Origin: Macrostomum lignano
Lineage: Eukaryota
DNA: 64,000 bases
Assembly (NCBI GenBank): GCA_002269645.1
Contig: NIVC01001190.1
Coordinates: 276,428 to 340,427, forward strand
Direction: 5' to 3'
Part shown: positions 26,456 to 62,991 of the stretch, in pieces
How the letters are laid out: each line of letters starts with the position of its first letter
Position numbering within the stretch: position 1 is the stretch's first letter
Program-made: the position numbers and the translations under genes
The notes under the pieces: generated by a model
Database searches by the model: none
What the model saw: only the letters and a program-made list of their open reading frames with translations
What the model was told of the DNA's origin: nothing

Positions 26456-27189
26456 GTCCTGGCTTGCATGGAATACATTTTATTGATACTATTCCACTGA
26501 ATCAAGAAGAGTGTCTGTGCAGAATATTCGAGGCGAAAATAAAGGACATATATCCAAGGCAAGCTTAAATTTACTCAACTCATTATATCCCTTTTATCTG
26601 TTTTAGCTGTTCTATCTATCTGTTTTAGCTGTTCTATCATCTCAACCTACTTGCCTATATTACGTTTTTATTACCATTCACTTTTCTTGAATGCAAGACG
26701 TTCTATAAAAATAAACTGATAAAGTCTTTAAACTTGACCTATCAACGGCATAAGCAAAATGATCTACCATCAGAGCCAAAATCTGTTTGCTGTTTGATTA
26801 TTACTGTTGAGTTCCTGGCGATCAAAGACTACGAATATTTCGACTATTACGTTGCAATACAGAACCATAAATTCCGGGGTAAATATATTCAACAGCTTAA
26901 CCAACCCACCTCCAACTCACACTGTCACGCGGCAAAAAAGTTAAACAATGCATTTAATGCTAGTTCAGTATCGTGTGCAGGAACCACGAGTGACTCGTCG
27001 TTGGCTCGATGGGGTTTATTTCTAGAGAGACCTTGACTGTCATTGTGTGGCACAGGGGCGTTGCCATGGATTTTATGTGTGGGGACGAAGCCAAGAATTC
27101 TACATGCACAGGATTTAATTCGTAAATGCGCATTGTTTTGAGAATCGGTATCGTTAGCGCTCATTTCGGCACCGTAGGCACTTGTATTG

Positions 27190-27760
27190 GCGCCGCAGGC
27201 AGGCACTCATTTTGGCGCCGCAGGGAGGCACTCATTTTGGCGCCGCAGGCAGGCACTCATTTTGGCGCCGCAGGGAGGCACTCATTTTGGCGCCGCAGGC
27301 AGGCACTCATTTTGGCGCCGCAGGGAGGCACTCATTTTGGCGCCGCAGGCAGGCACTCATTTTGGCGCCGCAGGCAGGCACTCATTTTGGCGCCACAGGC
27401 AGGCACTCATTTTGGCGCCGCAGGGAGGCACTCATATTGGCGCCGCAGGGAGGCACTCATTTTGGCGCCGCAGGCAGGCACTCATTTTGGCGCCGCAGGG
27501 AGGCACTCATTTTGGCGCCGCAGGGAGGCACTCATTTTGGCGCCGCAGGGAGGCACTCATTTTGGCGCCGCAGGCAGGCACTCATATTGGCGCCGCAGGG
27601 AGGCACTCATTTTGGCGCCGCAGGCAGGCACTCATATTGGCGCCGCAGGCAGGCACTCATTTTGGCGCCGCAGGGAGGCAATCGTTTTGGCGCCGCAGGG
27701 AGGCACTCATTTTGGCGCCGCAGGCAGGCAATCGTTTTGGCGCCGCAGGGAGGCGCTCAT
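27190..27760. repeat. 25-bp minisatellite (GGCACTCATTTTGGCGCCGCAGGCA)n, an inverted relative of the array at 22192
   Basis: The core ACTCATTTTGGCGCCGCAGGC is the exact reverse complement of the 21-bp unit at 22192. Confidence 0.95.
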
Positions 27761-29295
27761 TTTGTAGTGGGGGGGGGGGGGTCGGTGTGTCCTTAATTTT
27801 TCAGCTGTTGATTCAGCAGAATTTGTCTAAATCCGCAACTGATCTATTTTTCTGCGAGTACTGCAACACGCTCGTAGTCCATCTAAGCAATCGCTGGACT
27901 AGTAGGCCTGGACTAGCGGAGTCGACCGCGGTTAGTACGCCTATGTACGCTGCAAATATACCTGTAGCGGTTATTTAAAACTATTTAGAGAAGACAATGG
28001 AGTTAGTGCATGAACTTCTTTAACCATAGTCTAAAAAATAATCAGAGATTCATGCCGCATTGCGCTTTGTGAAGATATCATTGATACGTGGCAGGCTGGC
28101 AACCCGCACAGCAAGCAATCTGAAGCCTGCAATCCAATGATTACTCGTAAGATGTCCTCGGTCTTTCCTCTATTGATCTGTAGAATATTTTAAAATGTTG
28201 CGATTGTACATGCATACCACTAAAGGAAAGACTAGATTTGATTTTGTTCCATGATTTTACGGAGGCTTAAACTTTATAGAGTTCTTTTAACAAAAACTGT
28301 TAAGCCAATTTGTAGTGTTCTGTTAGTTTTATTCTCTAAATTGTTAATCGGATTTCTCCGGTCATTTAAATACAATTAAATGCGTAGAGATGCTACACAT
28401 TCTTTACGAGTACATGCAGGCATTTCCCAGTCCTAACAATGAGTTTAACTGCTCCTTTGTAATCTAATCAAAGTCAAGCGACTTTGCCAACAAACAGTCT
28501 GCAGCTAAAATAGACTACCGAGGACGGCCAAGGCATCGAGAGCTGCCCGAGAAGAAGGCCCGCTGTGTCAGCTCAAGCCAAATGGTCTCAAAGTGAGATT
28601 TGATTAAACGACCAAGTCTGCAGGGGAGTCTCCCCCGAGCACAATGGTAGCAGACCTCGGTAACAGGTCAAGAAAGGCGGACGGACTAACTGATAGTTAA
28701 TTATGAGTACACTGCAGCATGCGCACATGGAAATGGCACAGTTTCCTGGAAATGACAGACCGATAATAATTAGTTAATAAGAAGCCTATCGTTTGACGAC
28801 CAATATTACTCAAAAACTGCAGAAACCATTTAAAACGAGAAAAAAACCAATTGATAAACAGGAAAAACTTGTTTAACAATTAGAATTCATAACTGAATAT
28901 ATATAGAGAACGTATTATTTGCTTTATTAACATGTTCATATATAAAATACTTTCAGTCTGGATTTTAATCATCCAAATATGAAAGCTAAATAAATAAACA
29001 TTGATATTATTAACATTTGCTCAAAATAGTTTTTAAGCGCGGAGTCAATTAACAGCCAATAGCATTATTCGTTAAGCATAGCGATTCCCCCTACTTCAAG
29101 TAGCATAGATGACGTTTCATACGAAATTAGGATTATCAAAACAAAAATTACCTGGCAATCAGAAGCCATAGCGAATCAGTTCAGAAGACTTTTGGCCCAA
29201 ATACTTAATTAGTCAAGACTTCAAACTTCCACTTTCCAGGGCTTGCTCCGCCCACCCAAAGAGTCGACAAGACCCGAATTTGTTAAACTTTGCAG

Positions 29296-29912: not shown

Positions 29913-30033
29913 TGTGTGTGGCGACCCCAGTCTTTTGGCTTTCAAAAGCGGTACGCAGCCTTCAGAAGCGCCGCGCAATAGCTGCGGCTGAGCTGTCGGT
30001 TGCACATTTGTCTATTAGGGCAGGTGTAGTCAA

Positions 30034-30405
30034 AGTAGAAGGCATGAGGGGGCTTTTGGGACAAAATTTTTCACATCCTCCATAATTCCATTAAATCCAT
30101 CTATATTATCCCCGACAGAATCAGAAAAAAAGGAGGGTCGCACTCGCTCACAAAACGTCCTCCATAATCCCATTAAATCCATCCATATTATCCCTGACAG
30201 AATCAGAGCATAACAGGTGTCCTACTTGTTCCGAAAACTTCAAACATAATCCCATTATAATCCACTGACATCCACCCATAGCATCTTCGAAACAATCAGA
30301 AAATAATCTGCATTCTTCTCCCCACATTCAATCCGCAACGTGCTACCACATCCCTAAAACTTTAAATCCCCTAACCCAGGGTCCTTACCCATTGAAAAAA
30401 AAAAT
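30034..30405 (+). repeat. Polinton left TIR with internal ~75-bp iterated units
   Basis: Reverse complement of ~45630-46000, with repeated ATAATCCCATTAAATCCATCCATATTATCCCTGACAGAATCAGA. Confidence 0.93.
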
Positions 30406-30547
30406 AATTTTATTATTCATTAGTAAGAATTATATATTTATTAACGGTTGCACAGCTGATAGGATATGTATTAACTATTACAAGATTATCAAAAATGGTA
30501 GAAAAAACAGACACTATGTAGGATCTGTGTTAGAATTCTTCAACAAC

Positions 30548-30985
30548 ATACAGAGCCAGCCTAGCGTTCCTTTGAGCCAGCAGCTAGATTCTCTAACGCC
30601 GTTAGAATTTTCTATGTGAAAATTTGGTGTGCCCAAGCTTATCATGCGGGAAGCTTTTCACATAGAAAATTCTAACGGCGTTAGAAAATTTCTACCCCCC
30701 CCCCTCTATTTAACCATACAGAGCCAGCCTAGCGTTCCTTTGAGCCAGCAGCTAGATTCTCTAACGCGTTAGAATTTTCTATGTGAAAATTTGGTGTGCC
30801 CAAGCTTATCTTGCGGGAAACTTTTCACATAGAAATTTCTAACAGCGTTAGAATTTAAAACCCACCGACTGAGTTGCACACAGTACTGAGAAAATTGCTA
30901 CCCTCCTCTACTTAACCAATCGGCTGTCTCCAGTTGTTGAATCTTCTCTTTGAACTTCTAACGCGTTAGAAAAATTCTAAATGAA
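30548..30985. repeat. Tandem ~168-bp duplication, each unit with a long hairpin and TCTAACGCGTTAGA-type palindromes
   Basis: Perfect 31-bp arms at 30592-30622 and 30655-30685; second unit from 30716; another palindrome near 30957. Confidence 0.9.
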
Positions 30986-30998
30986 CTGAATTTAAAAA

Positions 30999-31676
30999 TT
31001 ACACAACTTTCCACGCAGGATCACTGGCCAAAATTTCTTCTAGAAACTTCATCTTAGAGTTTAGTTCCCTAATTGGCATTGACACCTGTCTCAAGCCTGG
31101 GTAGGTAACAGACAGTTTGTACAGACGAATGTACAAATAGCCAGTTGATTCCTGGATGTTTACATTTTTACACAAATGGGCGAACCGCACTTTAACATCT
31201 TGTCCAAAGTTCTCGGTGCGATAAGTTTTTAGCAGCCGCCCAACTTCGAGAATCCAATGTAGACCTCCAATTTGAGTCTTCTTGTATTTTGCTAGAGCCG
31301 CCTTCACCCTAGTGATGATGTTCTGCTCGCCAGATGGAAGCTGGTGATCAACAGCGTCCATCAGCTGATCAGCTAGTGTTACGCGGGATGCGTACAACTT
31401 CTCCCTGAATATCTGCAGATCCGCCATCTTCTTCTGCAGAGCCGCCGCCTTCTTCTCTTCGCTACTCACATTTTGCGCTTCATTCGCTGCGGCGATATCA
31501 TCAGGGGCCATGGCGAAAAACTCGATTGGTAGGTCGCCAGTTTCTAGACCGAAAAAGGTGGTTAGTTCCTCTCTTCTTCTTGCTTGTAGATGTGACGGAA
31601 TATCCTGTAAAACTCTTTGTAGCATGGCACAAAGGCCTTGCTTATCTGTCAAATGAAGATTCCACTCGACTTCCAT
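30999..31676 (-). CDS. Polinton accessory protein of unknown function (225 aa, helical)
   Basis: Intact ORF with an AAAATG start inside the element; no family recognised. Confidence 0.75.
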   Translation of the reverse strand: MEVEWNLHLTDKQGLCAMLQRVLQDIPSHLQARRREELTTFFGLETGDLPIEFFAMAPDDIAAANEAQNVSSEEKKAAALQKKMADLQIFREKLYASRVTLADQLMDAVDHQLPSGEQNIITRVKAALAKYKKTQIGGLHWILEVGRLLKTYRTENFGQDVKVRFAHLCKNVNIQESTGYLYIRLYKLSVTYPGLRQVSMPIRELNSKMKFLEEILASDPAWKVV

Positions 31677-32547
31677 TTTCTAAATCTTCTTGTCTTCTAA
31701 TCTTCTAGTTTGGCGGACAATTTCTTAGATCACTTTCAGCGTGCTAAGTTCCTGCAGTCGTCGTTTCTCAGTCGCAGTTGATGGCATATGCGGGGAGAAT
31801 CAACCCGAGTGTTTCTGCATTTGCTTAAATACAGCTATACAGCTAGAAAATTCCAGAAAATTCTAGACTGTACAATCTTGGAGTCAAGCAGGGAAAAAAT
31901 AATCGATATAGCTCAGTGAACGATAGAACATGAGGCGTGTGAATGTGAGGGTGAGCGATCGATTCCCTCCACCCGCTTGAAGTCCCCATACATTTCCTTG
32001 GTTGATTGGGTTTGTCAAAGCGGAAAGGAAAGCACGCGTGGAACTTGTACATTCGCAAAATCGATTAGAGGGCTGCGCTCCCTCAGCAAATAGCAGTTAC
32101 CCCACCCCCCTTCTGCTTCTACTTTTCAAAATGCAGCTGTTGCGCTTGGTTAGGGCTGAGAATAATAGTTAACCCTTTTTCCGACTCAAGCGCCTCTCTC
32201 TACCCCGCCCCATATCTTCATACCGTAGAGACCAACTAGGCGGGCCACATTCCGAGGCCAAATCGGCGGGCCGAGGCCAACTCGGCGGGCCAACTGGCCT
32301 CGCAATTTGGCCAATAATCAATATCAATCAAGGAGGGAATCTCAATATACACAGTCCATGCATGCTAATGGCGGCGAAGCGGTTGACTTTTTATTTTCTG
32401 CTCTTAGCTCTCTGGAGAATGAGAATCTCTCTTGTGCGCAACTCTTTAGGGAATAAAAAACTGTACTTACTCAAATCAACACTTGCTCATGCCCTTCCCG
32501 ATTCAAGCGCCCCTTTCTACCCCCAGCTCTTTCAGCAGTCTTCCCAA

Positions 32548-33003
32548 TTAATTGTTAGGAGCGCACAAAATAAACTCTGCTCCCGTGCGTTCGCCCTCTC
32601 TCCCCGTGCACTCGCCCTCTCTCCCCAAACACCCGCCCTCGGCGTACACCCCCAACCCCAGTTTTGTCTTACTAAAAATAACAGCTTTAACTAGCTTCCG
32701 AGCGATCGACTCACGAAATCCGCTTGAAATCCCCATATTGTCGAGTCTCCTGAGCATTTCTTTGTCCCAGCGATTCTTCTCCTCAGGAAAATCTCTATAT
32801 TTAACGTCATGCCACATGCAGACAGAGTCTAGCTCGTTCACAGGCTCATGCCCAGGATGTGGATTATTGTTTTTATCTAACTGTATTTCAAGTGGATTCA
32901 AAGGCCCGCAATATTTATAGCCGGGAAGTGTCCAGCCTTTGTTTGGATGAGGAAGCTTTTCTATCAGTCCATGTGAATCTATTTTACCACCAGAGCGCTG
33001 CAT
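32548..33003 (-). CDS. Parvovirus VP1u-like phospholipase A2 (PLA2X), ~151 aa
   Basis: WTLPGYKYCGP (Ca-binding loop) and VNELDSVCMWHDVKY (catalytic HD..Y). Start taken as MQRSGG at 33003. Confidence 0.88.
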   Translation of the reverse strand: MQRSGGKIDSHGLIEKLPHPNKGWTLPGYKYCGPLNPLEIQLDKNNNPHPGHEPVNELDSVCMWHDVKYRDFPEEKNRWDKEMLRRLDNMGISSGFRESIARKLVKAVIFSKTKLGLGVYAEGGCLGREGECTGREGERTGAEFILCAPNN

Positions 33004-33033
33004 TATTTTATTTAAAATTTTCTTTTTAAATAA

Positions 33034-34071
33034 ATGACAGATCAGAAACTTAAAAAACTCTACTACAGCGACAAAGGATTCTTTGTAGGCAAAAATGCCG
33101 TTAGTAAACTCATGGAGCTGAGTAAGGAGCCAAAAGCTACAGTAGAAAAATGGCTCTCTAAGCAGGCTGTCTTTCAAGTCTATTTCCCACCAGTAAAATT
33201 TGAAAGGCCCCATTTCAGTATTTATAAACCTAATGAAGCGCACCAAGCAGATCTTTTGTTTCTCCCCAACGACTCAGGCTACAAGTATGCTCTTACAATT
33301 ATTGACATTGCTTCCAGATATAAGGAAGCTCGCCCACTCAAGACGAAGAAGTCAGAGGTTGTTGCCAGCGCACTGCAAGATATTTATAAAAACTCTCCGC
33401 TCACATACCCCCAAATCTTTATGACCGACCCGGGTAAGGAATTCATGGGTGTAGTGAAATCCCTTATGGAAAAGAAAAACACAGAGATTCGCTATGGCAG
33501 AACAAACTTGCACAGAGACCAGGCTTTTGTGGAAAGATTCAATCTAACTCTAGCCAAGAGACTATTCACTAAGCAGACAGCGCAAGAACTCAAACTGAGT
33601 GCGGGGCAGTACTATACCAAGTGGACAGAAAGACTCCCCACTGTTATAGAGCAACTGAACAATGAAGTCACACGCATGACTGGATTGAAACCGTCCCATG
33701 CAATTAAACAAGACACTGTCGAACTTAAGGCATCTCATAGAACAGACAACAACACGACAACCCCACACAACACACACAACACAAAACACACCTCGAACTA
33801 CCCTAAGCTTCCAGGAGTTGAATCACCATACATACTGACAAACTCTGAGTTTCTACGCTTTTTATATCTACCTGGAGAGCTAGAGAAAGACACCAAAAGA
33901 AGAGCTACAGATCCATACTTCAGCCTTGATGTGCATAAAATAGACAGACATTTTACCTCCGACTCCGGTGACTATTACTTTTTATCTCAAGCCTTTAACC
34001 CTAAATCCCCCACGCGGTCATTCACTAGAGCTGAACTCCTAGTGATACCAGCTGACACAGAAATTAATTAA
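33034..34071 (+). CDS. Retroviral-like (rve) integrase of the Polinton, intact, 345 aa
   Basis: DDE motifs HQADLLFL, FMTDPGKEF, QAFVERFN. Confidence 0.95.
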   Translation: MTDQKLKKLYYSDKGFFVGKNAVSKLMELSKEPKATVEKWLSKQAVFQVYFPPVKFERPHFSIYKPNEAHQADLLFLPNDSGYKYALTIIDIASRYKEARPLKTKKSEVVASALQDIYKNSPLTYPQIFMTDPGKEFMGVVKSLMEKKNTEIRYGRTNLHRDQAFVERFNLTLAKRLFTKQTAQELKLSAGQYYTKWTERLPTVIEQLNNEVTRMTGLKPSHAIKQDTVELKASHRTDNNTTTPHNTHNTKHTSNYPKLPGVESPYILTNSEFLRFLYLPGELEKDTKRRATDPYFSLDVHKIDRHFTSDSGDYYFLSQAFNPKSPTRSFTRAELLVIPADTEIN

Positions 34072-34087
34072 AATATTAAAATAAAAA

Positions 34088-34533
34088 ATGACAAAGATTG
34101 AAACCAGAACCATCAATAAACTCAATAAAATCATTGAATCAAAGAAACCAGGTCTTATATCAATTAAAGGTGCCAAAGTAAAAGTCGATCCCGTGCAGCA
34201 AATAGTTCAGTGTAATGAGCAAAGACACAGCATCACAGATGAAAAGTCAGGAGGAATCCTACCATTAGCAGCTCTTATCCCAATCATTGCAGGCGCTGTA
34301 AGTGCCGCAGGTGGTGTAGCTGGAGGTGTAGCAACTGCTGTTAAAGCTGGGAATGATAGGGCTCACCAGCTAGAATTGCAAAAGATTGCAAGAGACAAAG
34401 GTATAACAATTAAGGCAGGAGAGGGCTGCCCCGATCGTGATGATTGTGAGAATGAAAATTCTATAAGCAAGTCTGACATTGTCAAAGCATCATGACACTG
34501 CACAATGCTGGGTTTACAATAATGCGCATGTGA
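34088..34533 (+). CDS. Adenovirus pX/mu-like virion core protein, with a 1-nt frameshift near the 3' end compared with copy 2
   Basis: SGG|ILPLAALIPIIAGAVSAAGGVAG resembles the adenoviral pX tail GGILPLLIPLIAAAIGA. The copy at 62992-63438 is intact at 148 aa. Confidence 0.7.
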
Positions 34534-34656
34534 TGAGGTTTAAAACCCCACTTTATCCAGCTTCATAAACCTAGCGCTACTTATAGGATGTAGAAACAGT
34601 TCAACTTTTCTATCAGGGTGGTCACCCTCAAAAATTTTTTTATTTTAGAGAAAAAA

Positions 34657-37600
34657 ATGCCAAAAGCTAATCCAGCAAAAGATTTAGTCAACAAACATTT
34701 TTCAAAAGGCGTCTCATTTCAAGACAAAAGTAATTTACTAAGAGAAGCATGTAAACAAAAGTTTAACACCGACCCTGGTCACCTGGGAAGCTATGAAAAA
34801 CAGTTGGAAATCATCAATCAATTAGAATCCAACCAGTATGCGCCTATAAAAATCCTGCAAAGGAACACCAAGAGAGGAGTCGCAACTTAGTTAACAAATA
34901 CGAAACTCTCACTGGTGAAAAAGCAAAGTACCCACAAAATAAGCAGGAACAAGAGAAATTAGAGCAATTAATCCATTTAAAAGAGTCGGAGCTTGCCACT
35001 GAAGAGATTAATTTTGCACAGAGGAAGTTTACAGAACATTACATAGAGTACACAATCCCAATTAACGGCACCAACGGCACCACCGCAAACATCTACGACT
35101 ATAAAGACAGCATCCAATCAGTTGTTGATCACACACTCAAAACACGCAAGACTTTAAACTACAGATATCATTCAAGATTGCGTTTTATATGCCTGCAAAA
35201 CCCACTGAGCATCTCGAGTATTACATGACAACAAAGGCAAAGCCATTCACCCCTACAGACACACTGGATCCTTTCCTTCAAGATGTCACTAAGAAAATTG
35301 AAGCGTTTACATCCAGAGGTTCCGGATGGGTCGTGGAGGGATTCAAAGAGCGACTGTCATGGTCATGAAATATGACCCACTTAAAGCCTCCTCTTATATA
35401 GAGCTCCCGCATAAGCTAGCCGGTAAAAAAGCTTGCATAAATGTTAAAAATAAAGACAATTGCTGTGCTCTATGGGCAGTTCTTTCTGCACTTCTTCATG
35501 ATAGTGTACCTCACCACCCCGAAAGAACCTCAAATTATCAAAATTATTTCAACTACTATCTCATCGAATGCGAAAAGAAGGGAATCAGGTTTGACAAAGG
35601 AGGCTTGGCGATCTCTCAGATCCCAAAGCTAGAAGAAGTGTTTAATAACAAAATTAGAATCACAGTCTTTGAGTGGAGTGAAAAAACTGAGAAAGTTCAA
35701 CCGGTCAGATGTAGCAAAGACGTTTTAGATCCGAGGGGAAAAGGCGGACTGAAGTGGATCTTCTAGTGATTGGTAATTTACTAGAGGAGGCTCACTATGT
35801 TTGGATTAAAGATCTTTCAAGACTCATTCACAAGCAGTTGAATAATCATCACGAGGCTGTTGCCATCTGCCGCTTGTGCCTTAAGCATTACAGTGGACCT
35901 GAACGCTTTGAAAAACTAACAGAGCATGAATTATCGTGCGAGGATCACCCAACAAACTGCTCTCTTCCTTCAGCTGAAGAGAAGTATCTCCGGTTTAAGA
36001 ACTATCACAAGATGGAGAAGCTCCCATTTGTTGTATATGCTGATTTCGAATGCTCAATCGTGCCAGAAACTCAAAAACAAACTCCAACTCAAAAACAAAC
36101 TCCAACTCAAAACAAACTCAAACTCAAAAACATATCCCCAATTCAGTAGCATATGCCTTTATTAATACAAAAGGACTTGTTGAGTATAATTATTTCTTTG
36201 GAGAGCAGTGTGTGGAGCAGTTTATTGCCAGAATGTTAGAGTTGCAAAAGTGATTAGCACCCTTCAACCTGTTCCAATAATGATGACTGAGGAGGATGAA
36301 AGCAATTTCCTATCAGCAACTCATTGCCACATCTGCAGGAAACATTTAACTTGCACTAATATTAAAAACCCCACCGTTAGGGACCACTGCCACTTTACTG
36401 GGAAATTTAGAGGTGCAGCGCATAACACCTGTAATCTAAAGCTAAAATCGAACATTCATGATCTAACGATATTTTGTCACAACGCAAAGAACTATGACAT
36501 GCATTTAATAGTTGAAAAAATCGGCATGATTCCAGACATACACCTTGATGCATCGCAGAGAACAAGGAGAAGTTTAAGTGTGTTGATATTAAACAGGATA
36601 ATTCGGGTACAGGTAAAATAAGACTGAAGGATTCATATCAATTTCTAGCTGCCAGTCTAGACGAACTAAGCAAGAATCTAAAAGATGAACAATGTACATA
36701 TACAAAGATGTTTGCAAGTAAAATTAACAACACTGATGAATCATTTAAACTTTTAAGAAAGAAAGGCTTCTACCCCTATGAAAATATTACTGGGTATCAC
36801 GTATTTGAAGAAGGTTTACCACCACAGAAAGTTCTTTTCAAAGCTAACAGACTCTGGAATCTCTGACAAAGACTATGAGCACGCGAAGCATGTCTATAAT
36901 TACTTTAATTGTCAAAACTTCTTCCAGTATCACCTGCTTTACCTCTACACAGATGTGTTTCTGCTGGCCGATGTGTTTGAAACCTTCAGATACACCTGGT
37001 ACACAGCATATGGCCTCGATCCAGCACATTATGTGTCTCTGCCTGCCACTAGCTGGGAATCTTTGCTTAAAATGAAATGGGATCAAGATCCAGATTGGTA
37101 CATTGAACTTCTTACAGACATTGACATGTACAATTTTGTCGAATCGTCAAAGCGAGGGGGATCTCAATTTGCGTTAACAGGTATGCAAAAGCAAACAATC
37201 CCTACATTGAATCTTACAATAAGGAGCAGCCCTCAAACTACATTACTTACTTGGACGCTAATAATCTCTACGGGTGGGCGATGAGTCAAGATCTTCCAGT
37301 TAGAGATTTTCGATGGCTACCCTCATCAGAATTAAAGTGGGACTTTTCATTGGCTGCCATTTATGAGTTGATGTTTACATTCCACCAGAGCTTCACGACT
37401 ATTTCTCTGACTTTCCACCCTTCCCAGAGAACATCAAGTGCCCGAAAATAATCGAAACTCCCAATGATAATAATGGAACTTGGCACCTGTCAGGAACAGA
37501 AAAAGAACATACAGAGAAACTAACACAGAATCTAAACAACAAGACACGTTACAAAATCCATTACAAACTGCTTCAGTATTTTATCTCACTTGGTTGCAGG

Positions 37601-38532
37601 GTCACCAAAGTTCACGGGCTCTTACATTTACAGAGGAAGCGTGGATGAAACCCTACATTGATAAGAACACCCAGTTTAGGACCAAAGCAACCAACGACTT
37701 TGACAAGAACCTCTTTAAGTTGGCCAACAACTCTGTCTATGGCAAGACTCTTGAGAATGAGCGGAAAAGAACAAACCTGAAACTTGTTACCTCATCAGAG
37801 CCTGCTGTTATTCAGGCAAATATGTCAAAGCCAACATTCAAAGAACTCCATATCTTTAATAGCTACTTAGGTGTGATCATATTTTACAAAACCAAGGTGA
37901 CGCTGCGCAAGCCGATCTATACAGGTGTCACTGTTCTCGACGAATCAAAACGTCTGATGTACCAGTTCTTCTATGGCATGAAGCAGCAGTACAAGGATAA
38001 AATGAAACTCTTGTACACTGACACAGACAGTTTTATTATGGACATTCAAACAGAAGACATTTATCAGGACATGCTGCAGCAAAAAGATTTGTTTGACTTG
38101 TCTGAGTATGATGAATCTTGCAGGACACAGAATGGCGATCAAGTGTTTGACGCCACTAACAAGAAAGTGATTGGGAAAATGAAGGACGAGATTGCTGGTG
38201 ACATAATCACTGAATTCATTGGGTTGAGAGCAAAGTCCTATTTTGTAAAATGTGAGTCGTCAGACCCAATTAAAAAATCAAAGGGAATTCCGAAACGTGT
38301 GGTTAGGAAGGAAATTAATGAAGCTGAATACAGAGACGCCTTGAATTGCAACAAAAAGACATCACATGAGTTCTCAAAGCTACAATCTAAAAACCATATT
38401 ATTCACACAATTCAGCAAAAGAAGATTGGACTGTCAGGTGCAGATAACAAGAGATTCATTTTTGATGACAATATCAACAGTCTACCGTTCGGGCACTGGA
38501 GGTTAGGTTTAGGAGGTGGATATTGGGTTTAG
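34657..38532 (+). pseudogene. Protein-primed family B DNA polymerase (pPolB), with multiple frameshifts
   Basis: Motifs occur in order across frames: FTSRGSGW, YDPLKASSYIELP, VVYADFE (ExoI), RDHCHFTGKFRGAAH, HNAKNYD (ExoII), YTDVFLLADVFE (ExoIII), DANNLYGWAM (A), KLANNSVYGK (B), LYTDTDS (C). Confidence 0.95.
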
Positions 38533-38565
38533 GTTTGAGAGAAAGTTTAATAAACCTCATAAAAA

Positions 38566-38966
38566 ATGACGACAAATAACTTTCTTGAAGATTTGGCTAA
38601 CGAACTGGAAATCCCAAACTTTAGAGGAATATTTATGAGGGACACTCTGCCTGATTTTCCTCTAAGAAAGGAATGCGGCATCATGAACTTTGACACCACC
38701 GATAAGCCAGGATCTCATTGGGTTTGCTGGGTGATTGATCCCGATCGCAAGCACAAGTGTTATTACTTCGATAGCTATGGGACGGCAGTACCAGAAGAGC
38801 TAAGAAATTATATGAAGGGAAAAAATAATAAAAAAATTTATCGCTCAGACTTTATTCTCAAGGTCTTAGCAGTGATATTTGCGGTGAGCTGTGCATGACT
38901 GTTTTGTATGCAATGACCAAAACACGAAAGACCTACAAGGAAATTATTCTTGGCTGTGTTTCATAG
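38566..38966 (+). pseudogene. Adenain-like (C5) cysteine protease with one frameshift
   Basis: GSHWVC (His) and YFDSYG (Asp), then after a shift near 38860, QGLSSDICGELC (Gln/Cys); TAG at 38964-66. Confidence 0.88.
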
Positions 38967-38969
38967 GGT

Positions 38970-39617
38970 TCATTGTGCATTTCTCGTTGTACTTCTCGTT
39001 GTCCTTCTTTCCACATAATGTTGAAGAACTTTCTCGAGTTCATTTCTCAGCTGACTCATGTCATCAGTACCGACCATGTTCAAGTTCATTCGAATTGATT
39101 GTTCATAAAGATCCTGAATGGTTTTGAACTCATCCTCTGAAATGAACTTATCCTCGATTGCCCTTGAAATGTACCCTATGATTGATGTGTGCACCCCTTT
39201 CTCTTTTACTTGCTTCTCCTGTAGCTGCTTTAGTTTTTTTCGCCTGTTTCGCGCTAATGCTCCAGTAATTGCTGAAATAAGTCCACATGCAGCACCCACA
39301 GAGCCGAGCGGGATTGCGATTGGGGCTGTGATGGCTGGCAACACTGAGACAGCTGCAGCAGATCCAGATAGAACAGACACAGATCCTAGAATCATATTGC
39401 TGTAGTCGAAAAATTTACAGTGGTTGTCATAGCGCTTAATTTTCTTTGTGTTGTGGAAAATATTTTTTTCAAGATCATCGCGCATTTTTTGAATCTCCAC
39501 CAGTCGAAACTGTTGAGAGTTACAAGTAATGACGGGGTAAAGTTTTTGTTGCTCATATTGGGGTGCACTAGGTGCTGTGGGAGCATTCGGATCATAAAGA
39601 GAATTTTGAGCATCCAT
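38970..39617 (-). CDS. Polinton membrane protein (coiled coil + two hydrophobic helices; possibly the family called GasderminX in adintoviruses) with PTAP/PSAP motifs
   Basis: Intact from MDAQ. Contains FRLVEIQKM, hydrophobic stretches MILGSVSVLSGSAAAVSVL and IAIPLGSVGAACGLISAITG, and ISRAIEDKFISEDEF. Confidence 0.78.
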   Translation of the reverse strand: MDAQNSLYDPNAPTAPSAPQYEQQKLYPVITCNSQQFRLVEIQKMRDDLEKNIFHNTKKIKRYDNHCKFFDYSNMILGSVSVLSGSAAAVSVLPAITAPIAIPLGSVGAACGLISAITGALARNRRKKLKQLQEKQVKEKGVHTSIIGYISRAIEDKFISEDEFKTIQDLYEQSIRMNLNMVGTDDMSQLRNELEKVLQHYVERRTTRSTTRNAQ

Positions 39618-39724
39618 TTTTAGAGAATTTTTAAAAAAAATTGACAACTCGTTGGTGGTGGTTAGATTTGTTTTACGTTTGATTGTTTCGTCTGCAGTTG
39701 GCAGGTCTCTTCGAATCTACCTAT

Positions 39725-40521
39725 TTATTTGTCTATGCGCTCCATTCTACACTTGATCTCAAACAAACCGGTTGGCTCACGAAATTTTGGGTTAGTGGTC
39801 AAACTGGTTGGCTCACGAAATTCGTGGTCAGTGGTCAAGTCGGTTGGATCACTTATTTCCCTTGTGGTCTGTGGTGCCTCTTCAACAGTATCAATATCAG
39901 GAAGATTGTGTCTTCAAGACGACTGATTCTTCTCAACGATTTCTGCCATTCGGTAAAAATTAAATCTAAAAGACTTTAATTGCATCAAGTCTTTCTTTAT
40001 TCTATCATGCAACGATGTTGACTGAGTCATGAACTCTTCTAAATTCCTCACTTTACCTGTGTTGGTTGCGACGTTTTCTTTAATTCTATCATGCAACGCT
40101 GTTGACTGGTTCATGAACTCTTCTAAATTATTTACTTTAGCTCTGTTTGTGAAAACTCCTTCTTCAAGAATACGCATCCGTCTATCAGTGGAATTTCTCA
40201 GAAGATTAATTGTCGATGTTAACCGTTGATTTGCGAGACTGCCGAAGTTATTTCTGACCTAAGTTCATTAGTTGCGTGTACAACCTGTACATAAAGCTTA
40301 TCACTTTCAAACTTCTGCCTGGCTACTTTTATGCGGAGATCTTCTATGTTTATCTGTAGCTGGTGCATGGAGCGCTCTAATTGTTTCAGTCTGTTTTTAT
40401 TCAGTTTGATCTCTGGGATCTCTTCGTCGCTGTTGATATATCGCCTGTCAAGGATGGATATTTGAGCTGATGTAAGAGCGCTGTTGCCAGAAATGGATTC
40501 ACCTGCAAAGTTTATCGACAT
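39725..40521 (-). pseudogene. Coiled-coil protein with an internal repeat, frameshifted
   Basis: ORF pieces 40219-40521 and 39914-40177; repeated segment NRAKVNNLEEFMNQST..HDRIK / NTGKVRNLEEFMTQST..HDRIK. Confidence 0.6.
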
Positions 40522-40537
40522 CTTTTAATAGCAAATT

Positions 40538-41309
40538 TTAAATTACAGTTCTTTTTTCTTTGCTGATAATCACAAACTGGTAAGGCTGATTCCACTTGTC
40601 ATAGCAAAGATTAACGAATTCCTCTGTGAAATCTTTCTGCTTGAGTTTTTTGTTGGATTTATGAAATAGGCAGGCGCAATGACCTCATTGTAAAATCTTT
40701 TTAACCTGTCCTGTGGAATGGTTGGAAACAGGAGAATCAGATTGCAGTTCCCACGAATTGTTTTGTTCGGGAGCTCGAACCAGTTCTGTGCAATGTAAAT
40801 TACATTACAATTGTTATGTCGTCCTCTTGTAAAATAGTTTTCTATCTGCTTCTGTGGGCCTGTCATACAATCATCAAAGACGATCAAATGCTTTCTCCCC
40901 TTTTCTAGCTCATCTGGTTGGGGTAGAAGTTTGGTCTTTGGATCAGCCTGTGGATCTCCATAGGTGAACACTTTAATGTTCTGCCATTTTTCATTGTCTT
41001 TGAGGTGCTTTGCATATTCGGCAGCTACAATTTCAGGGTTACTGGGAAGGCTCATTTGGTTATTAAAACATGCAATAATGTCCTCTTTGTTCAGCTTGTT
41101 TTGAAACCCTGCAATCCTGGAGAGTAGATGTGCAGAGTGTCATAGTCGATAAAGCCAGGTCTAAGAAGCATGTTAAAGACTCTGAATGTTTTACCTGAAC
41201 CTGATGAACCAACAACAATGCATCTGAAATGACTCGGAATTGACTCGTGATGAGAAAACTTAATCTGATTACGCGTCCAGTGAGGATTGAAGTCGTTTGA
41301 AAAGTCCAT
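40538..41309 (-). pseudogene. A32/FtsK-like genome-packaging ATPase with ~2 frameshifts
   Basis: Walker A GSSGSGKT, Walker B LIVFDD, FTRGRH, IYIAQNWFELP, and C-terminal LCYDKWNQPYQFVII. Confidence 0.92.
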
Positions 41310-41349
41310 TTTTTCTATGATGAAAAAAAATTTAAATAATAAATAATGT

Positions 41350-41515
41350 AGATGTGTCATTTCGGGACTTAGATGTGTCATTTTGGGACTTAGATGTGTC
41401 ATTTTGGGACTTAGATGTGTCATTTTGGGACTTAGATGTGTCATTTTGGTACTTAATTGTGTCATTTTGGGACTTAGATGTGTCATTTTGGTACTTAATT
41501 GTGTCATTTTGGGAC
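41350..41515. repeat. 21-bp minisatellite (TTAGATGTGTCATTTTGGGAC)n inside the Polinton
   Basis: About 8 units between the ATPase start and the stop of the upstream ORF. Confidence 0.93.
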
Positions 41516-41558
41516 TAGTCTTGTACCTTTACATTTCTTGTACCCTCGGAAAGTACCT

Positions 41559-41948
41559 TTAGTCAAATTTGAAACCACTTCCTTTTTTAATGCTAGCTCT
41601 CATCTTCTCATAGACTGCAGGGTCCACACTGTCTGGATTTGGGGCCAGTGGGGCCAGCGGGGCCAGTGGAGGTTGAATATCTTGTTTAGGTGTTACAGTA
41701 TCCTTTATCTTTTTGGCTGCTGTGGCTACACTGCCAGCCGCTTCGGCAACGTTCTTGATGTTCTCTTTGTTCTCTCCAATGACCTTAAAAATCTTGGCCC
41801 CCTGAGCGATCAAATCGGCAAGGCCATTCCCAGAGCGTTCTTTTCTTGGATAGTGGCCTGCAGGGAAAAGTCCAGATCCGCGTTTCATGAGATTAAGTTC
41901 CTCTTTGTCATAGTATTTGTCCACGTCTTTCTCAAAAATAATCGGCAT
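41559..41948 (-). CDS. Small virion-core-like protein with GxG candidate protease sites and an amphipathic helix (~129 aa)
   Basis: RGSGL, SGNGLADLIAQGAKIFKVIG, KGSGF and a PPLAPLAPLAP tract. Confidence 0.7.
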   Translation of the reverse strand: MPIIFEKDVDKYYDKEELNLMKRGSGLFPAGHYPRKERSGNGLADLIAQGAKIFKVIGENKENIKNVAEAAGSVATAAKKIKDTVTPKQDIQPPLAPLAPLAPNPDSVDPAVYEKMRASIKKGSGFKFD

Positions 41949-41964
41949 TTTTACTTGAAATAAA

Positions 41965-43161
41965 TTATTTTTTGTTGAACCGCGAAAGCAGAAGCTCTCT
42001 CGCCCTCTTATCGATGTATTTTCTCTCAAGCATTTTGTCTAGGATGTTGACAAATTCTTTTCTATTTTCATCTTTCATTCCGGTCTTTGCTGCACCTAGA
42101 AGAACCGCTACTCGCTTGTAGATTTCAGAAATTCCTTTTCCAGTTGAGGGCGGTTGGTCTTGGGGTTGTGGAGTTGGTTGGGCTTGTAGCTGCTGGGGAG
42201 GTGATGCAAAAGACTGCTCACTTTCAGAGATGGAACTGTCATGTGGTGCCTGTCTTTGTTGAGGTGTGAAAACTCTTTGCCTGATTCTGTTCATTCGATC
42301 TGGAGAGTGTTGTTCTAAGTGTTGCCAATCTGTTGGGTTTTGTTTCTTATATTCAGCTACTTGAGTCGGATCTGCATTTTCCAGTTGCCTGAGTACTTCT
42401 GTGAAATGTTGCTGCTGCTGTGGTTGTGGTTGTTGTTGCTGTTGTTGTTGTTGTTCTAGATATTTTATGACTTCCCCCTGATCTGGCAAATCGAACCATT
42501 GTTTAAAGTGATTGTACTTTTTGAATCTAGTCAGGTTGACACCGTTATCATACATAAGTCTCAGGACTTCTGGGGCCTTTAGTATTGCTATATCTCTAGC
42601 AAGAGCAAAAGTCACTAGATCTCTATAGTTCTTTAGCTGTTTGTCCGAGATTCTCTCTTGGTTCTTGGTCATAAAAGTCAGTAAGGTTTCTGTGAAAGGA
42701 ATGCTCTTAGTTTCCGAGCCTTTGACAACAGAAATATGTTTCTTATTTATGTCGATATAATATTCCACTGGTTCATTATAAATGTTTCTTCTCCACATAC
42801 TTATTCCAAATACATATTTCCCATCATGTTCGACACGCTCTACTGGTCCAAAAATGTTATCTGTCACTTTTAGTTGTGATTGATGTGGTTGTGGTTGTTG
42901 TGGTTGCGGCTGTATCTGTGGTGCTTCTGGAATTTTGCCCAAAACCTTTTGCACTTGGGTTTCCTGTATGTCGTCGATAGTTTCTTTGACCTGATCAATA
43001 TTTTTCTTAGCTTCTCCATACCCGGGTTTATGAAACTCTGTGGCTGCTTGGACAAACTCATTGTAGGATTGTTGCTCCTTATTTATTAGCCTGGTAACTC
43101 GTTTCTCTGCTTGTGCTAGCTTCTCCAATTCAGATATCTGCTGTGTACTTTTTCGCTTCAT
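41965..43161 (-). CDS. Q/P-rich Polinton conserved protein (PZ-like), intact, 398 aa
   Basis: C-terminal TGKGISEIYKRVAVLLGAAKTG...EFVNILDKML resembles the common Polinton motif RL.LL.....AG...EI..I..L. Confidence 0.7.
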   Translation of the reverse strand: MKRKSTQQISELEKLAQAEKRVTRLINKEQQSYNEFVQAATEFHKPGYGEAKKNIDQVKETIDDIQETQVQKVLGKIPEAPQIQPQPQQPQPHQSQLKVTDNIFGPVERVEHDGKYVFGISMWRRNIYNEPVEYYIDINKKHISVVKGSETKSIPFTETLLTFMTKNQERISDKQLKNYRDLVTFALARDIAILKAPEVLRLMYDNGVNLTRFKKYNHFKQWFDLPDQGEVIKYLEQQQQQQQQPQPQQQQHFTEVLRQLENADPTQVAEYKKQNPTDWQHLEQHSPDRMNRIRQRVFTPQQRQAPHDSSISESEQSFASPPQQLQAQPTPQPQDQPPSTGKGISEIYKRVAVLLGAAKTGMKDENRKEFVNILDKMLERKYIDKRARELLLSRFNKK

Positions 43162-43192
43162 TTCTTATTTTATTTTATTTTTAGTTAAAAAA

Positions 43193-44479
43193 ATGAACGA
43201 CCCACTGACACCAGTTTTCTACAAGATTAACAAGCCTATTTTGAGTGATGATAGCACAATCAAAGCGACTCAGGTAAGAGTTCCCAGTCAGGAAAATCAG
43301 AATGAAACTAATCTTGGTCCTGGTCAAACACTGACATTTACATACAATGGATGTTCGTCTTTGGTTAGTGTGCACAGTCTTAAGAGCGGCTTCCATATGA
43401 CATTTCAATTCAAGACAAAGGGTGGTGCGGATGCGGCTCGTGCTAACGTTGACAAGCATGATGCGGATGTGGCTCTGATCAGTAACTTTTGGGCGTACAT
43501 GTTCAAGGAGTTTAGTGTATCGAATGGGAGCACTGAGTTGGAGCGAATCGCCAACTTTGGAATTGTCTATGACGCTCATTGTTTGATCGAGAATCCTGAT
43601 TTTATTCAATTGGGAAGTGGTGCGGGTTTTATTGCAGACGAAAAAGAAGGAGATACCAATGACAGTGGCTATAAAAATAGGAAGAAGAGATACAACTATG
43701 CATTGCAAGGTGCTGATGATGCTGCTAAGAACCCGCTGTATCGGTCTGTTGATGTATTTGTACCATTAAGATTCATGAGTGGATTCTGTAATACATTTAA
43801 TCGACTGACTAGCAACTTTAGCTACACATTTAGACTGACTAGAGATGATCGCAGTAGAGTGTTGTGGACTGGGGCGGACCACACAAGGATGGAGGTGAAG
43901 CTAACCGGAATCGAGCTGTATTTGGAAGTCATTGAGCCAAAGACTGCACTAAAAGCGGATTATCTCAAGGCAATAGAGAAGGACATTGATGTTGCATACA
44001 CAGCCTACATGTGTCGAGATGAGCGAAACGAAACTAGAACAAACATCTGCATTAAAGAGGGATCATGCAGCAATCCAAGGTATATCATTATTAACATGAG
44101 AAACCCAAATAGCATTATCCGCTACATGCATGGAGACGTGCGGTCCATTCAGCATGAAATCAGTGATAATCTTTACCCTGCACTGCCACAAAATGGAGAT
44201 TTCAGTCAGAACAAGATTAGCAAATTTTACAGCGAGTTGGTCGACTTGGCTGTGAAAGAGAACAATGGAATTGCTATCACTGCTCTTCAATATGGAACTC
44301 TATATCCAATGTTTGGAGCTGATGTGTCTGCCAGACAAATGCCTACTGATAACAGCCCTGTGAATATCGTGACTAACATTGAAAGGACTGCCGCAACACC
44401 CGTGGACCTGTACATTATCTATGCATTTGAGAGGAAGGTGAAGCTTAACATGATCAACAATTCATCCAGTGAAGTTTAA
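43193..44479 (+). CDS. Major capsid protein (double jelly-roll, PY/hexon-like), intact, 428 aa
   Basis: Size, beta-strand-rich composition, position next to the penton, and motifs such as VFVPLRFMSGFC, FRLTRDD and YPMFGADVS. Confidence 0.85.
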   Translation: MNDPLTPVFYKINKPILSDDSTIKATQVRVPSQENQNETNLGPGQTLTFTYNGCSSLVSVHSLKSGFHMTFQFKTKGGADAARANVDKHDADVALISNFWAYMFKEFSVSNGSTELERIANFGIVYDAHCLIENPDFIQLGSGAGFIADEKEGDTNDSGYKNRKKRYNYALQGADDAAKNPLYRSVDVFVPLRFMSGFCNTFNRLTSNFSYTFRLTRDDRSRVLWTGADHTRMEVKLTGIELYLEVIEPKTALKADYLKAIEKDIDVAYTAYMCRDERNETRTNICIKEGSCSNPRYIIINMRNPNSIIRYMHGDVRSIQHEISDNLYPALPQNGDFSQNKISKFYSELVDLAVKENNGIAITALQYGTLYPMFGADVSARQMPTDNSPVNIVTNIERTAATPVDLYIIYAFERKVKLNMINNSSSEV

Positions 44480-44500
44480 ATATTTTTTTTATGGGTGAAA

Positions 44501-45367
44501 AAAATGGAAGCGATTGCTGAAAGACTAAATAATATTGTTTCTCACTCCAAGGAGAGCATTCCTATTACAATAACTGGGCGAATTAATGACTCAAACGGGA
44601 TATTTATTCAAAAATTAGAGCAGGCGATTCGCCTGGATCCAGGTGCTAATTACCATGTCTATCTTAACGACTTCACTGGTTGGTCAAACGTTCCCAATGT
44701 GATGGCAGCAAATAATAAGTTTTATTACAAATGGAAAGGTGCAGCAGCAGAACCTGTGGTATTCCCTGTTAGCACGCAAAGTGTGGATACCTACAATTAC
44801 TTTCTAGAAAACGTCTTTACTAAGAGAGGCCATTTTGAGACACCTGATGCGAGTAAGCCAGAGAAGAAACTGTTCCCTGTCAAACTATCCTATGATCTCA
44901 CTGTAATGAGAGTGGTCATGCAAGTTCACAAAGATGCGGAGGTTGAGTTTAAAGATGACACTTGGTATAGGGAACTGGGATTCGAGAAGAAAGTTTATAA
45001 GGCAGAATCCGCGCCGCGGACCGCCACTCAAGCGTCAGGGGCCGTTAGCATGGCCCGGGAAAACGTAAGCGGTTTGTTCTTAGCACCCAATATAGCAGAC
45101 ATTGTAAAGGGTTTGAATATTCTAATCAGAAGCAATCTCAGTCTTGATTGGGTATTTAAGGGAAAGCGAACGAATATTTTGTACAACATCTCCAACTCTG
45201 TTGCTGGAGGACAGATGGTGGTAGAGAAACCAAATCCAGTGAAAAGAGTTGTATTGAGTAATAAGGAGATTCACGAGATTGTGCTACAGTTTGAGACTGA
45301 AGATGGGATGGGCGTTGATTTTAATGGGGAAGAGTTTGTATTGACGTTGATCATTGAAAGAATGTAA
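44501..45367 (+). CDS. Minor capsid protein (penton, PX), intact, ~288 aa
   Basis: YHVYLNDFTGWSNVPNV...NNKFYY, ILIRSNL, ILYNI, and EIVLQFETEDG..VDFNGEEFVLTLII. Confidence 0.88.
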   Translation, partial: KMEAIAERLNNIVSHSKESIPITITGRINDSNGIFIQKLEQAIRLDPGANYHVYLNDFTGWSNVPNVMAANNKFYYKWKGAAAEPVVFPVSTQSVDTYNYFLENVFTKRGHFETPDASKPEKKLFPVKLSYDLTVMRVVMQVHKDAEVEFKDDTWYRELGFEKKVYKAESAPRTATQASGAVSMARENVSGLFLAPNIADIVKGLNILIRSNLSLDWVFKGKRTNILYNISNSVAGGQMVVEKPNPVKRVVLSNKEIHEIVLQFETEDGMGVDFNGEEFVLTLIIERM

Positions 45368-45374
45368 GAAAAAA

Positions 45375-45614
45375 TTACAATTGTCTAATGATTTCTGCAA
45401 AGTTATAGTAGCTGTCGTAATCTTTTACATAGGTTACTCCATACTTATAAAACCAGTGTCTTTGGAGAGCTTGATTAATATTAGGGACATTGATATCAAC
45501 ATCGGGCCAATGTTTTCTCATGTACTCGCTGCATTCAAGTTTGCATTGGTACTTGGATTTGTACAATGGATTAGGCTGAGTATAATAAGAACCTGGAGAG
45601 ACAACTGGAAACAT
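45375..45614 (-). CDS. Small TIR-proximal ORF (79 aa, Tyr-rich), unknown function
   Basis: Preceded by TTCTCTAAAAATG, as is the 2-TM gene. It differs from copy 2 at 5 aa, against 8 aa for the antisense frame. Confidence 0.6.
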   Translation of the reverse strand: MFPVVSPGSYYTQPNPLYKSKYQCKLECSEYMRKHWPDVDINVPNINQALQRHWFYKYGVTYVKDYDSYYNFAEIIRQL

Positions 45615-45629
45615 TTTTAGAGAAAATTT

Positions 45630-46000
45630 ATTTTTTTTCAATGGGTAAGGACCCTGGGTTAGGGGATTTAAAGTCTTAGGGATCTGGTTTCGCCGCTTCG
45701 GATTGAATGTGGGGAGAAGAATGCAGATTATTTTCTGATTGTTTCGAAGATGCTATGGGTGGATGTCAGTGGATTATAATGGGATTATGTTTGAAGTTTT
45801 CGGAACAAGTAGGACACCTGTTATGCTCTGATTCTGTCAGGGATAATATGGATGGATTTAATGGGATTATGGAGGACGTTTTGTGAGCGAGTGCGACCCC
45901 CCTTTTTTTCTGATTCTGTCGGGGATAATATAGATGGATTTAATGGAATTATGGAGGATGTGAAAAATTTTGTCCCAAAAGCCGCCTCATGCCTTCTACT
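45630..46000 (-). repeat. Polinton right TIR
   Basis: Reverse complement of 30034-30405, with a diverged patch around 45675-45700. Confidence 0.93.
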
Positions 46001-46430
46001 AGTCTATATTTTTATATTTAATATTAGTTATTATAAGCTTAAAAAATTAAAATTTCGCTAACAGCGCTTTCGAAAAGAACAATTTTCATCGAATTAACTG
46101 TTAATAATCTGTTTGACGCGCCCAGCTCTTGTTGTTGCTTGGAGTTGTTTTCCATTTATGCTCGCGAATCAAGCGGATGCGACAAGGGCATAGAAACCCC
46201 ACACAATTTTGCTAATTCCAGAGGCAAATATGGTGCACTGTCTTGTAAAGCGATGCACTAATAGCGTAGAAACGTTTTACTCTCATATCCTCAATGCAAG
46301 CGGTAAGAAAGCAACTGCTTATTGCTGAAAAGTTAAAGCGCTGGATAGAGCCCCTGTTGGAATATACTTTTTAGAATGCAACTATTGCTGCACACATGCT
46401 GTGGGGGCGGCGGTCAGAAGTCTCTAGCAA

Positions 46431-61910: not shown

Positions 61911-61940
61911 TATTTTATTTAAAATTTTCTTTTTAAATAA

Positions 61941-62973: not shown

Positions 62974-62991
62974 AATATTAAAATAAAAAAA

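Follow-up and report, generated by a model that had tools for sequence, protein, structure and literature searches.

A predicted hairpin membrane protein encoded by a Macrostomum lignano Polinton carries conserved TSG101- and ALIX-type motifs and may act in ESCRT-dependent egress

A Polinton/adintovirus-type element in a window of Macrostomum lignano DNA (the whole stretch analysed, 64,000 nucleotides) encodes a 215-residue protein in which a predicted membrane hairpin follows an unstructured N-terminal tail containing PTAP, PSAP, and LYPVI. Since both types of motif are kept across the protein family and the tail is predicted to face the cytosol, the sequence comparisons give good support to the view that they serve in ESCRT docking and are under selection. 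The finding is one of known late-domain signals in a new setting, a family of Polinton membrane proteins. By analogy to NS3 of bluetongue virus we lean, with limited firmness, towards a membrane-anchored ESCRT adaptor that would take part in non-lytic release.

The finding bears on the exit of animal Polintons from cells, and hence on their reach into the germ line or across species, and points to one gene, two host partners, and the extracellular-vesicle fraction as the place to look. For a large unnamed viral family previously read as a pore, it suggests a function that can be tested. If the egress reading is true in the wider form given below, these "non-enveloped" integrating DNA viruses could pass between cells and hosts in vesicles and without lysis, which would explain the rarity of naked Polinton particle sightings. 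An earlier note on this DNA knew of no such demonstration for Polintons, and a literature search agreed with it, finding no paper that links Polintons and ESCRT (most subscription journals lay outside the search).

The Element and Its Genes

The Polinton setting assumed in the earlier note was borne out by the termini and by the Pfam gene content (Table 1). The two terminal inverted repeats, of 307 nt each, are 99% complementary, and the left and right copies of the flanking 6-bp target-site duplication match at 5 of 6 positions. The core genes were present, namely, integrase, protein-primed DNA polymerase B, ATPase, protease, and double jelly-roll capsid protein. The polymerase pieces, for which the Pfam scan gave no match, were assigned by motifs typical of polymerases of this kind, and the probable minor capsid ORF had no Pfam match either. 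No fusogen was matched by Pfam among the 17 ORFs of the element that were scanned. Several core reading frames are broken in this copy, through decay or assembly error; the ORF of 215 residues is intact, and the protease frame is its convergent neighbour. Three sequencing runs, presumed to be of RNA, gave coverage over the entire element and its repeats, as the DNA-type run did, and were not taken as evidence.

Table 1: Features of the element and of the 215-residue protein (positions in the window).
Feature	Position	Strand	Basis or remark
Polinton/adintovirus-type element, ~16.0 kb	30034..46000	.	TIR pair, gene content, termini and flanks
Left terminal inverted repeat, 307 nt	30034..30340	+	6-bp target-site copy at 30028-30033
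PLA2-like protein	32548..33213	-	PF08398 E=3.5e-13, above cut-off
rve integrase	33034..34071	+	PF00665 E=2.1e-8, above cut-off
Protein X-like core protein	34088..34495	+	PF05829 E=3.7e-7, above cut-off
Protein-primed DNA polymerase B, several pieces	35326..38532	+	polymerase motifs
Adenain-like protease, short frame	38566..38898	+	Peptidase_C5 E=0.0027, below cut-off
SLATT-like hairpin membrane protein, 215 aa, late-domain tail, intact frame	38970..39617	-	ORF and AlphaFold2
C-terminal helices, residues 161-214, predicted cytosolic	38976..39137	-	AlphaFold2
Polybasic RNRRKK, residues 123-128, directly after hairpin	39234..39251	-	
Uncharged hairpin tip, residues 72-122	39252..39404	-	two predicted membrane helices, 6-residue turn
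Unstructured N-terminal tail, residues 1-33	39519..39617	-	without secondary structure, pLDDT 58-66
LYPVI, residues 26-30	39528..39542	-	predicted ALIX V-domain ligand
PSAP, residues 16-19	39561..39572	-	overlaps PTAP (one proline in common); in variable 9-nt repeat
PTAP, residues 13-16	39570..39581	-	predicted TSG101-UEV ligand
A32-like packaging ATPase, in pieces	40570..41507	-	PF04665 E=0.0067, below cut-off
Double jelly-roll major capsid protein	43193..44479	+	PF21738 E=2e-5, below cut-off
Probable minor capsid protein	44504..45367	+	inferred from position and size
Right terminal inverted repeat	45694..46000	-	target-site copy at 46001-46006

Other features of the window are recorded here for completeness. 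A single LYPAL lies inside the major capsid ORF at 44171 (+) and is probably a structural feature; VP2 of hepatitis A virus has buried YPXL motifs. In an ORF of 129 residues (41559-41948, -), which had no match in the Pfam scan, glycine-rich sites are followed by a stretch predicted to be amphipathic; it presumably resembles the adintovirus "cupiennin" gene or protein VI of adenoviruses. The same Polinton family is represented a second time at 60423-64000, by a partial copy (TIR, PLA2, integrase, pX) that runs past the window end; it is adjoined at 57308-60423 by what its motifs suggest to be an LTR-retrotransposon-like gag/integrase/RT set, and the ORF at 56284-56985 is on the same footing presumably transposase-like. 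Minisatellites arrayed in tandem, with 21-nt units among others, at 22201-22870, 25975-26411, and 27077-27767 yield long repetitive ORFs that are probably not genes.

Tail Motifs and Genomic Copies

The ORF starts MDAQNSLYDPNAPTAPSAPQYEQQKLYPVI, and its residues 13-30 correspond to 39528-39581, where the overlapping PTAP and PSAP and the LYP motif described in the earlier note were located, beyond what chance would give. The six frames of the 16-kb element contain P(S/T)AP at three sites, of which two are in this tail and the third is in no ORF that begins with ATG. The LYP motif had been called imperfect, which it is not, as LYPVI matches [LIVM]YPx[LI], the commonest signal of the family. At the start of the tail there is also an NSLY (residues 5-8, 39605-39594, -), shared by 11 proteins of the element's clade and by none of the others examined.

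A genome search with the 215-residue protein returned at least 151 matches, and 39 of the 40 copies with flanks (37 distinct places) have the same gene neighbourhood as the window. Tails were read at 77 distinct places, a nonrandom choice made up of the 30 best matches, 7 reached through a distant-relative query, and 40 picked by hand. An anchor was missing at two of these places and an in-frame Met at 14, and at 5 the tail was cut short or shifted; the 56 full-length tails all carry LYPx[LI] together with P(S/T)AP units, numbering one in 25, two in 24, three in 5, and four in 2. Considering that the genomic copies have from one to four units, the PTAP/PSAP overlap is a 9-nt repeat that expands and contracts, that is, a local repeat and no family trait. 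The overlap to which the earlier note gave prominence is thus present here but has no weight family-wide, a second P(S/T)AP in the first 90 residues being found in 0 of the 148 non-seed relatives listed; the two overlapping motifs probably cannot be occupied by more than a single UEV domain at once. The 56 tails fall into two types that differ in the place of P(S/T)AP, 34 short and 22 long, and in the long type a lone PTAP stands further upstream and the proximal site is mostly without the motif. The genome search that used a distant relative as query found nothing beyond this family, although one of the copies was more diverged. In a more diverged Polinton copy (C85:929000-938900) the integrase comes next after this gene, unlike the order in the window, and PSAP and LYPVI are retained.

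Retention of the Motifs across the Family

Retention in homologues was the check proposed in the earlier note, and both motifs are kept. In nine close homologues (43-53% identity), P(S/T)AP is found in 7/9 and Tyr-Pro in 9/9. A profile search reached 579 clusters (50% identity) at E≤0.001; of the 150 matches listed, 148 did not belong to the seed. The counting set was formed by 126 of these 148 after 22 were dropped, 5 as fragments and 17 for tails shorter than 10 residues, which are possibly miscalled starts. Among these listed distant homologues, P(S/T)AP was present in 58/126 tails and [LIVM]YPx[LI] in 96/126, the YPxL signal being the more constant, and at least one of the two in 112/126; P(S/T)AP was missing in 68 and neither motif was found in 14. 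For the same listed tails, 1000 composition-preserving shuffles gave a mean of 0.77 and a maximum of 5 for P(S/T)AP and a mean of 0.47 and a maximum of 4 for [LIVM]YPx[LI]. Outside the tails the listed proteins showed the motifs in 2/126 and 0/126, respectively, in 23,290 residues, some 7 times the 3,265 of the tails. With the short tails included the listed matches gave 58/143 and 96/143. Because the seed profile contained tail columns, the count was repeated on the 74 listed matches whose best alignment starts in the core, with P(S/T)AP in 30/74 and [LIVM]YPx[LI] in 53/74; core-only E-values were 8e-7 or better for all among the matches listed.

The residues within and around the motifs are restricted as well. 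Among the matches listed, S or T occupies the variable position in 58 of 62 P-x-A-P sites, Pro stands at +1 in 115 of 130 sites where Tyr has a hydrophobic residue at +3 (YxxPhi-type), and L, I, V, or M precedes the Tyr in 109/116, with PPxY in 6/126 tails, versus 3.4 expected by chance. The protein has an exact P[ST]AP and a hydrophobic-Y-P-x-L/I, each in an unstructured region and each retained in homologues, which is how late-domain and YPXnL sequences are recognized.

The arrangement of the motifs is variable. In the 52 listed tails with both, P(S/T)AP precedes the other motif in 24 and follows it in 28, and the spacing among the matches listed runs from -17 to +54 residues, with the fused form YPxLP(S/T)AP in 13. 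Two core-only trees require a minimum of 10-11 switches of order (59 rows) and 31-33 changes of presence (134 rows), compared with 20 and 44 changes, respectively, when labels are shuffled; as these are fewer than with shuffled labels, kinship matters, and turnover is still repeated. Such repeated order swaps would be the behaviour of genuine short linear motifs. Two further sets, of 36 and 119 proteins, were left out of the main statistics because nearly all are close kin in two clades and because one set had been picked for motif-bearing rows; the two motifs occur in them in 34/36 and 29/36 and in 115/119 and 119/119.

With respect to genomic setting, the Polinton context of the family comes from the copies in the Macrostomum lignano genome. 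Many distant members have many copies on megabase eukaryotic contigs, one being a Hydractinia protein, a setting that is compatible with endogenous elements and no proof of them. The search for related loci in viral contigs and metagenome contigs gave no confirmed locus. The ESM Atlas offered, as a lead only, unnamed clusters in which Mollusca and Nucleocytoviricota were commonest, with recognition scores <2300.

Structure, Topology, and Fold Matches

The AlphaFold2 model has a mean pLDDT of 86.9. Residues 1-33 are without secondary structure, followed by a hairpin of two helices (34-91 and 98-156) and by two shorter helices (161-182 and 186-214), in agreement with the earlier description of a disordered tail ahead of two hydrophobic helices. 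The model of a distant relative has a similar fold. Residues 72-122 include no charged residue, the family median for the uncharged run being 50, and the hydrophobicity of the hairpin, with a peak of 1.85, is no more than moderate. Around the tip there are five K/R before and nine after, and a signal-peptide-like N-terminus was found in 1 of 188 proteins. Taking into account the lack of a signal peptide and the basic flanks on both sides of the hairpin, both ends of the protein are predicted to be cytosolic. The motif-bearing tail is accordingly predicted on the cytosolic face, and not on the luminal one, which the earlier note had named as a finding that would count against it. A sequon lies within the uncharged hairpin in 10/134 family members. 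The C-terminal helices 161-214 are a candidate contact for cargo or capsid.

The best Foldseek matches of the first model were uncharacterised invertebrate iridovirus proteins (E from 1.8e-6 to 6.5e-5), and a second, independent model matched the same proteins with E from 1.1e-8 to 6.2e-7 at 25-27% identity. Next came SLATT-annotated giant-virus proteins at ranks 5, 12, and 13, the best with E=6.6e-4 for the first model; for the second, the best annotated SLATT protein had E=4.6e-3, and it should be kept in mind that long helical hairpins match many folds. The SLATT architecture of two membrane helices with cytosolic helical flanks is present in the model. The Pfam SLATT families gave no match to the 215-residue protein itself, SLATT_5 was matched at E≤5e-4 by 1/129 members and SLATT_1 at E≤0.05 by 5/140, and the label "SLATT-like" is used because no member reaches the curated Pfam cut-off (best SLATT_5, 27 bits against 29.5). 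Relatives also match RTX and ApoL pore-type hairpins weakly. In the PDB there was no Foldseek match at E≤0.001, and the best VIA-align Z, 12.1, fell among generic helical bundles. A profile match to AopB (E=3e-4) was taken as hydrophobic-hairpin likeness, and fold matches to ESCRT-III/PspA and BAR proteins were judged generic.

Host TSG101 and ALIX

The Macrostomum lignano genome encodes a TSG101 UEV domain (E=1e-44 to human). In human numbering it keeps T58, Y68, N69, T92, M95, P139, V141, S143, and R144, and has His at Y63 and Val at F142; we take all these positions to line the PTAP pocket. The exons of the ALIX V domain are present as well and retain the residue aligned to human F676, which we assume to belong to the V-domain ligand pocket. 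The host ALIX has its own PSAP directly after the V domain, and both genes are found at three assembly places each. By this comparison, the host TSG101 and ALIX pockets appear largely intact.

Proposed Function and Alternatives

According to the mechanism we favour, the hairpin 72-122 would insert in the membrane with both predicted cytosolic ends on the same side. Late-domain biology (PMC7923801, PMC5217368) makes it highly probable that P(S/T)AP would bind the TSG101 UEV and LYPxL the ALIX V domain, with recruitment of ESCRT-III and VPS4. The coiled coil or the C-terminal helices may hold capsids, and budding into endosomes or at the surface may release quasi-enveloped particles, a step that by analogy seems rather likely; ESCRT would in this way pinch off membrane-wrapped Polinton particles without lysis. 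With PLA2, with protein X, and with no fusogen match among the 17 ORFs scanned, the gene content of the element fits a host-membrane cloak on a naked-type capsid and not a true envelope. Egress is preferred as the purpose over nuclear budding, over sorting, and over a repair function linked to a pore by analogy to orbivirus NS3. The egress reading of the earlier note is in this respect partly supported: motif retention and the predicted cytosolic tail speak for it, and its emphasis on the overlapping pair does not hold. A caution comes from Toxoplasma GRA14, whose PTAP recruits TSG101 and is dispensable for the uptake that it serves, and whose YPX(n)L mutant still recruits TSG101, as reported in PMC8700025. 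In a wider form, which we put forward tentatively and as falling a little short of probable, many animal Polintons would exit quasi-enveloped by means of a dedicated NS3-like ESCRT adaptor shared with invertebrate iridoviruses; this adaptor would be a SLATT-type hairpin that acquired TSG101 and ALIX late domains, in a family of at least 579 sequence clusters.

The fold matches bear most directly on an alternative that is unlikely but still carries weight: a SLATT-type pore, viroporin, or sorting adaptor whose tail binds ESCRT to send the protein itself or membrane proteins of the host to multivesicular bodies, or to tie up ESCRT repair of the membrane near the pore, and not for budding. The SLATT-annotated giant-virus proteins among the fold matches and the weak SLATT_1, SLATT_5, RTX, and ApoL matches agree with it, as does the description of SLATT proteins as predicted pore-formers in 10.64898/2026.04.29.721553. 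NS3 also has viroporin-like activity (PMC7409164), so that a pore is compatible with the adaptor reading. Against it, the hairpin has no charged residue to line a channel, PPxY, the usual route of ubiquitin-driven down-regulation, is at chance level, and TSG101 and ALIX are the pair used by HIV-1 Gag in budding (PMC7923801).

The greater constancy of YPxL over P(S/T)AP (96 versus 58 of the 126 listed) could also be explained if ALIX and ESCRT-III were recruited at the inner nuclear membrane and nuclear capsids budded through the nuclear envelope in the manner of herpesviruses. ESCRT-III is active at this membrane in HSV-1 (PMC6107581). Polintons, which lack a transcription apparatus, probably assemble in the nucleus. 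Nevertheless, nearly half of the family has the TSG101 motif, ESCRT-I is not listed in the nuclear-envelope module (PMC12607486), and a perinuclear particle would need a de-envelopment fusogen, of which there is none among the ORFs scanned; we regard this route as improbable. Less probable again is a particle-borne entry protein that forms a pore for endosomal escape and whose motifs steer incoming particles, comparable to the PPxY of adenovirus protein VI, which recruits Nedd4 (PMC5217368). Entry was proposed for the SLATT proteins of cryptophyte Polinton-like viruses (PLVs) in PMC12220804; that proposal rested on missing lipases, whereas this element has PLA2. Moreover, ESCRT budding leads out of the cytosol, whereas escape has to lead into it, and an uncharged hairpin of 50 residues would be hard to fit in a membrane-free capsid.

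Slightly less likely even than entry is a function without ESCRT, with the Tyr motif as a generic YxxPhi clathrin-adaptor signal, which LYPVI formally matches, and another partner for the Pro motif, as the listed relatives show Pro after Tyr (115/130), an aliphatic residue or Met before it (109/116), and the exact TSG101 consensus in 58/62 P-x-A-P sites. The 9-nt microduplication behind the overlap, with one to four units among copies, speaks for a last alternative, in which a tail rich in proline and prone to repeats gave rise to the motifs by chance. This has next to no likelihood, since at the family level it is refuted by shuffles that reach at most 5 and 4 of the 126 listed against 58 and 96 observed, and the motifs stay while flanks, spacing, and order vary.

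Comparison with Known Systems

The closest parallel is NS3 of the orbiviruses (bluetongue), which is likewise a small membrane protein of a non-enveloped virus (PMC7409164). It carries its late domains in a cytosolic N-terminus and has, besides polybasic motifs and a coiled coil, two helices in the membrane and a C-terminus that is again cytosolic. Bluetongue NS3 mediates non-lytic egress via TSG101, and its capsid-binding C-terminus bridges capsids to TSG101 (PMC7409164). NS3 differs in belonging to a dsRNA virus and in having PSAP with PPRY (NEDD4) and a glycosylated loop of 21 residues, where the Polinton protein has LYPxL (ALIX) as the partner motif and a turn of about 6 residues. The NS3 arrangement of PPxY beside PSAP with a glycosylated loop is not the family's, to judge by PPxY in 6/126 tails among the matches listed and a hairpin sequon in 10/134. 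The best Orbi_NS3 sequence match had E=0.043 (in 3/10), and NS3 stood at rank 39 in Foldseek with E=0.095. NS3 is treated as an analogue of the Polinton protein.

HIV-1 p6 has the same two motifs (PTAP and YPXnL) within one short unstructured stretch, and the PTAP duplication of HIV-1 subtype C resembles the 9-nt repeat of the Polinton tail (PMC7923801); EIAV p9, with its YPXL late domain, is a further retroviral parallel. In retroviral Gag the motifs are on the capsid polyprotein, whereas in the Polinton they are on a separate, predicted integral membrane protein.

The viral SLATT-like proteins of adintoviruses, PLVs, and giant viruses resemble the protein in their helical hairpin with cytosolic helices on each side. 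In Supplementary Fig S2 of PMC8502044 a "SLATT" label is placed on adintovirus maps, and the likeness to this family is by label; in this work the genes counted as membrane-active are PLA2X, GasderminX, and cupiennin, and its main text makes no mention of late domain, egress, budding, or envelope. Neither this protein nor the 140 members gave a gasdermin or pX match, among the matches listed, to the adintovirus GasderminX type, and pX is on a separate ORF of the element, apart from the hairpin protein. SLATT genes are common in PLVs (PMC12220804 and two PLV preprints, which do no more than list them), where the literature, in the portions available, treats them as pores and leaves late domains unmentioned. 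As for the best fold matches, the invertebrate iridovirus proteins IIV22 S6DF61, Armadillidium iridescent virus A0A068QKD3, and Liz-CrIV A0A5B8RH66, the likeness is of fold, and they are not equated with VP031L, VP065L, and VP093L of tiger frog virus; a vertebrate iridovirus buds via ESCRT (PMC4880917).

The single published hint of membrane-coated Polintons in the parts of the literature available is MFUS-1 of nematode Mavericks (10.1101/2022.07.12.499685, 10.1101/2023.08.22.554363). The word "budding" does not appear in 10.1101/2022.07.12.499685, and 10.1101/2023.08.22.554363 names as a matter for further study whether only the nematode Polintons are enveloped. MFUS-1 is a gB-like entry protein of the nematode elements, while the present element is without a fusogen among the ORFs scanned.

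Hepatitis E virus joins a naked capsid and a PSAP in ORF3 to release in ESCRT-made vesicles, with no viral fusogen. Hepatitis A virus (VP2 YPXL, pX) is alike in that a naked capsid is released in ESCRT-made vesicles, which have no viral protein on their surface and no viral fusogen, according to 10.1101/2022.04.26.489493. Both differ from the Polinton in being RNA viruses whose signals are borne by the capsid or by a palmitoylated protein, and not by a membrane protein of two helices.
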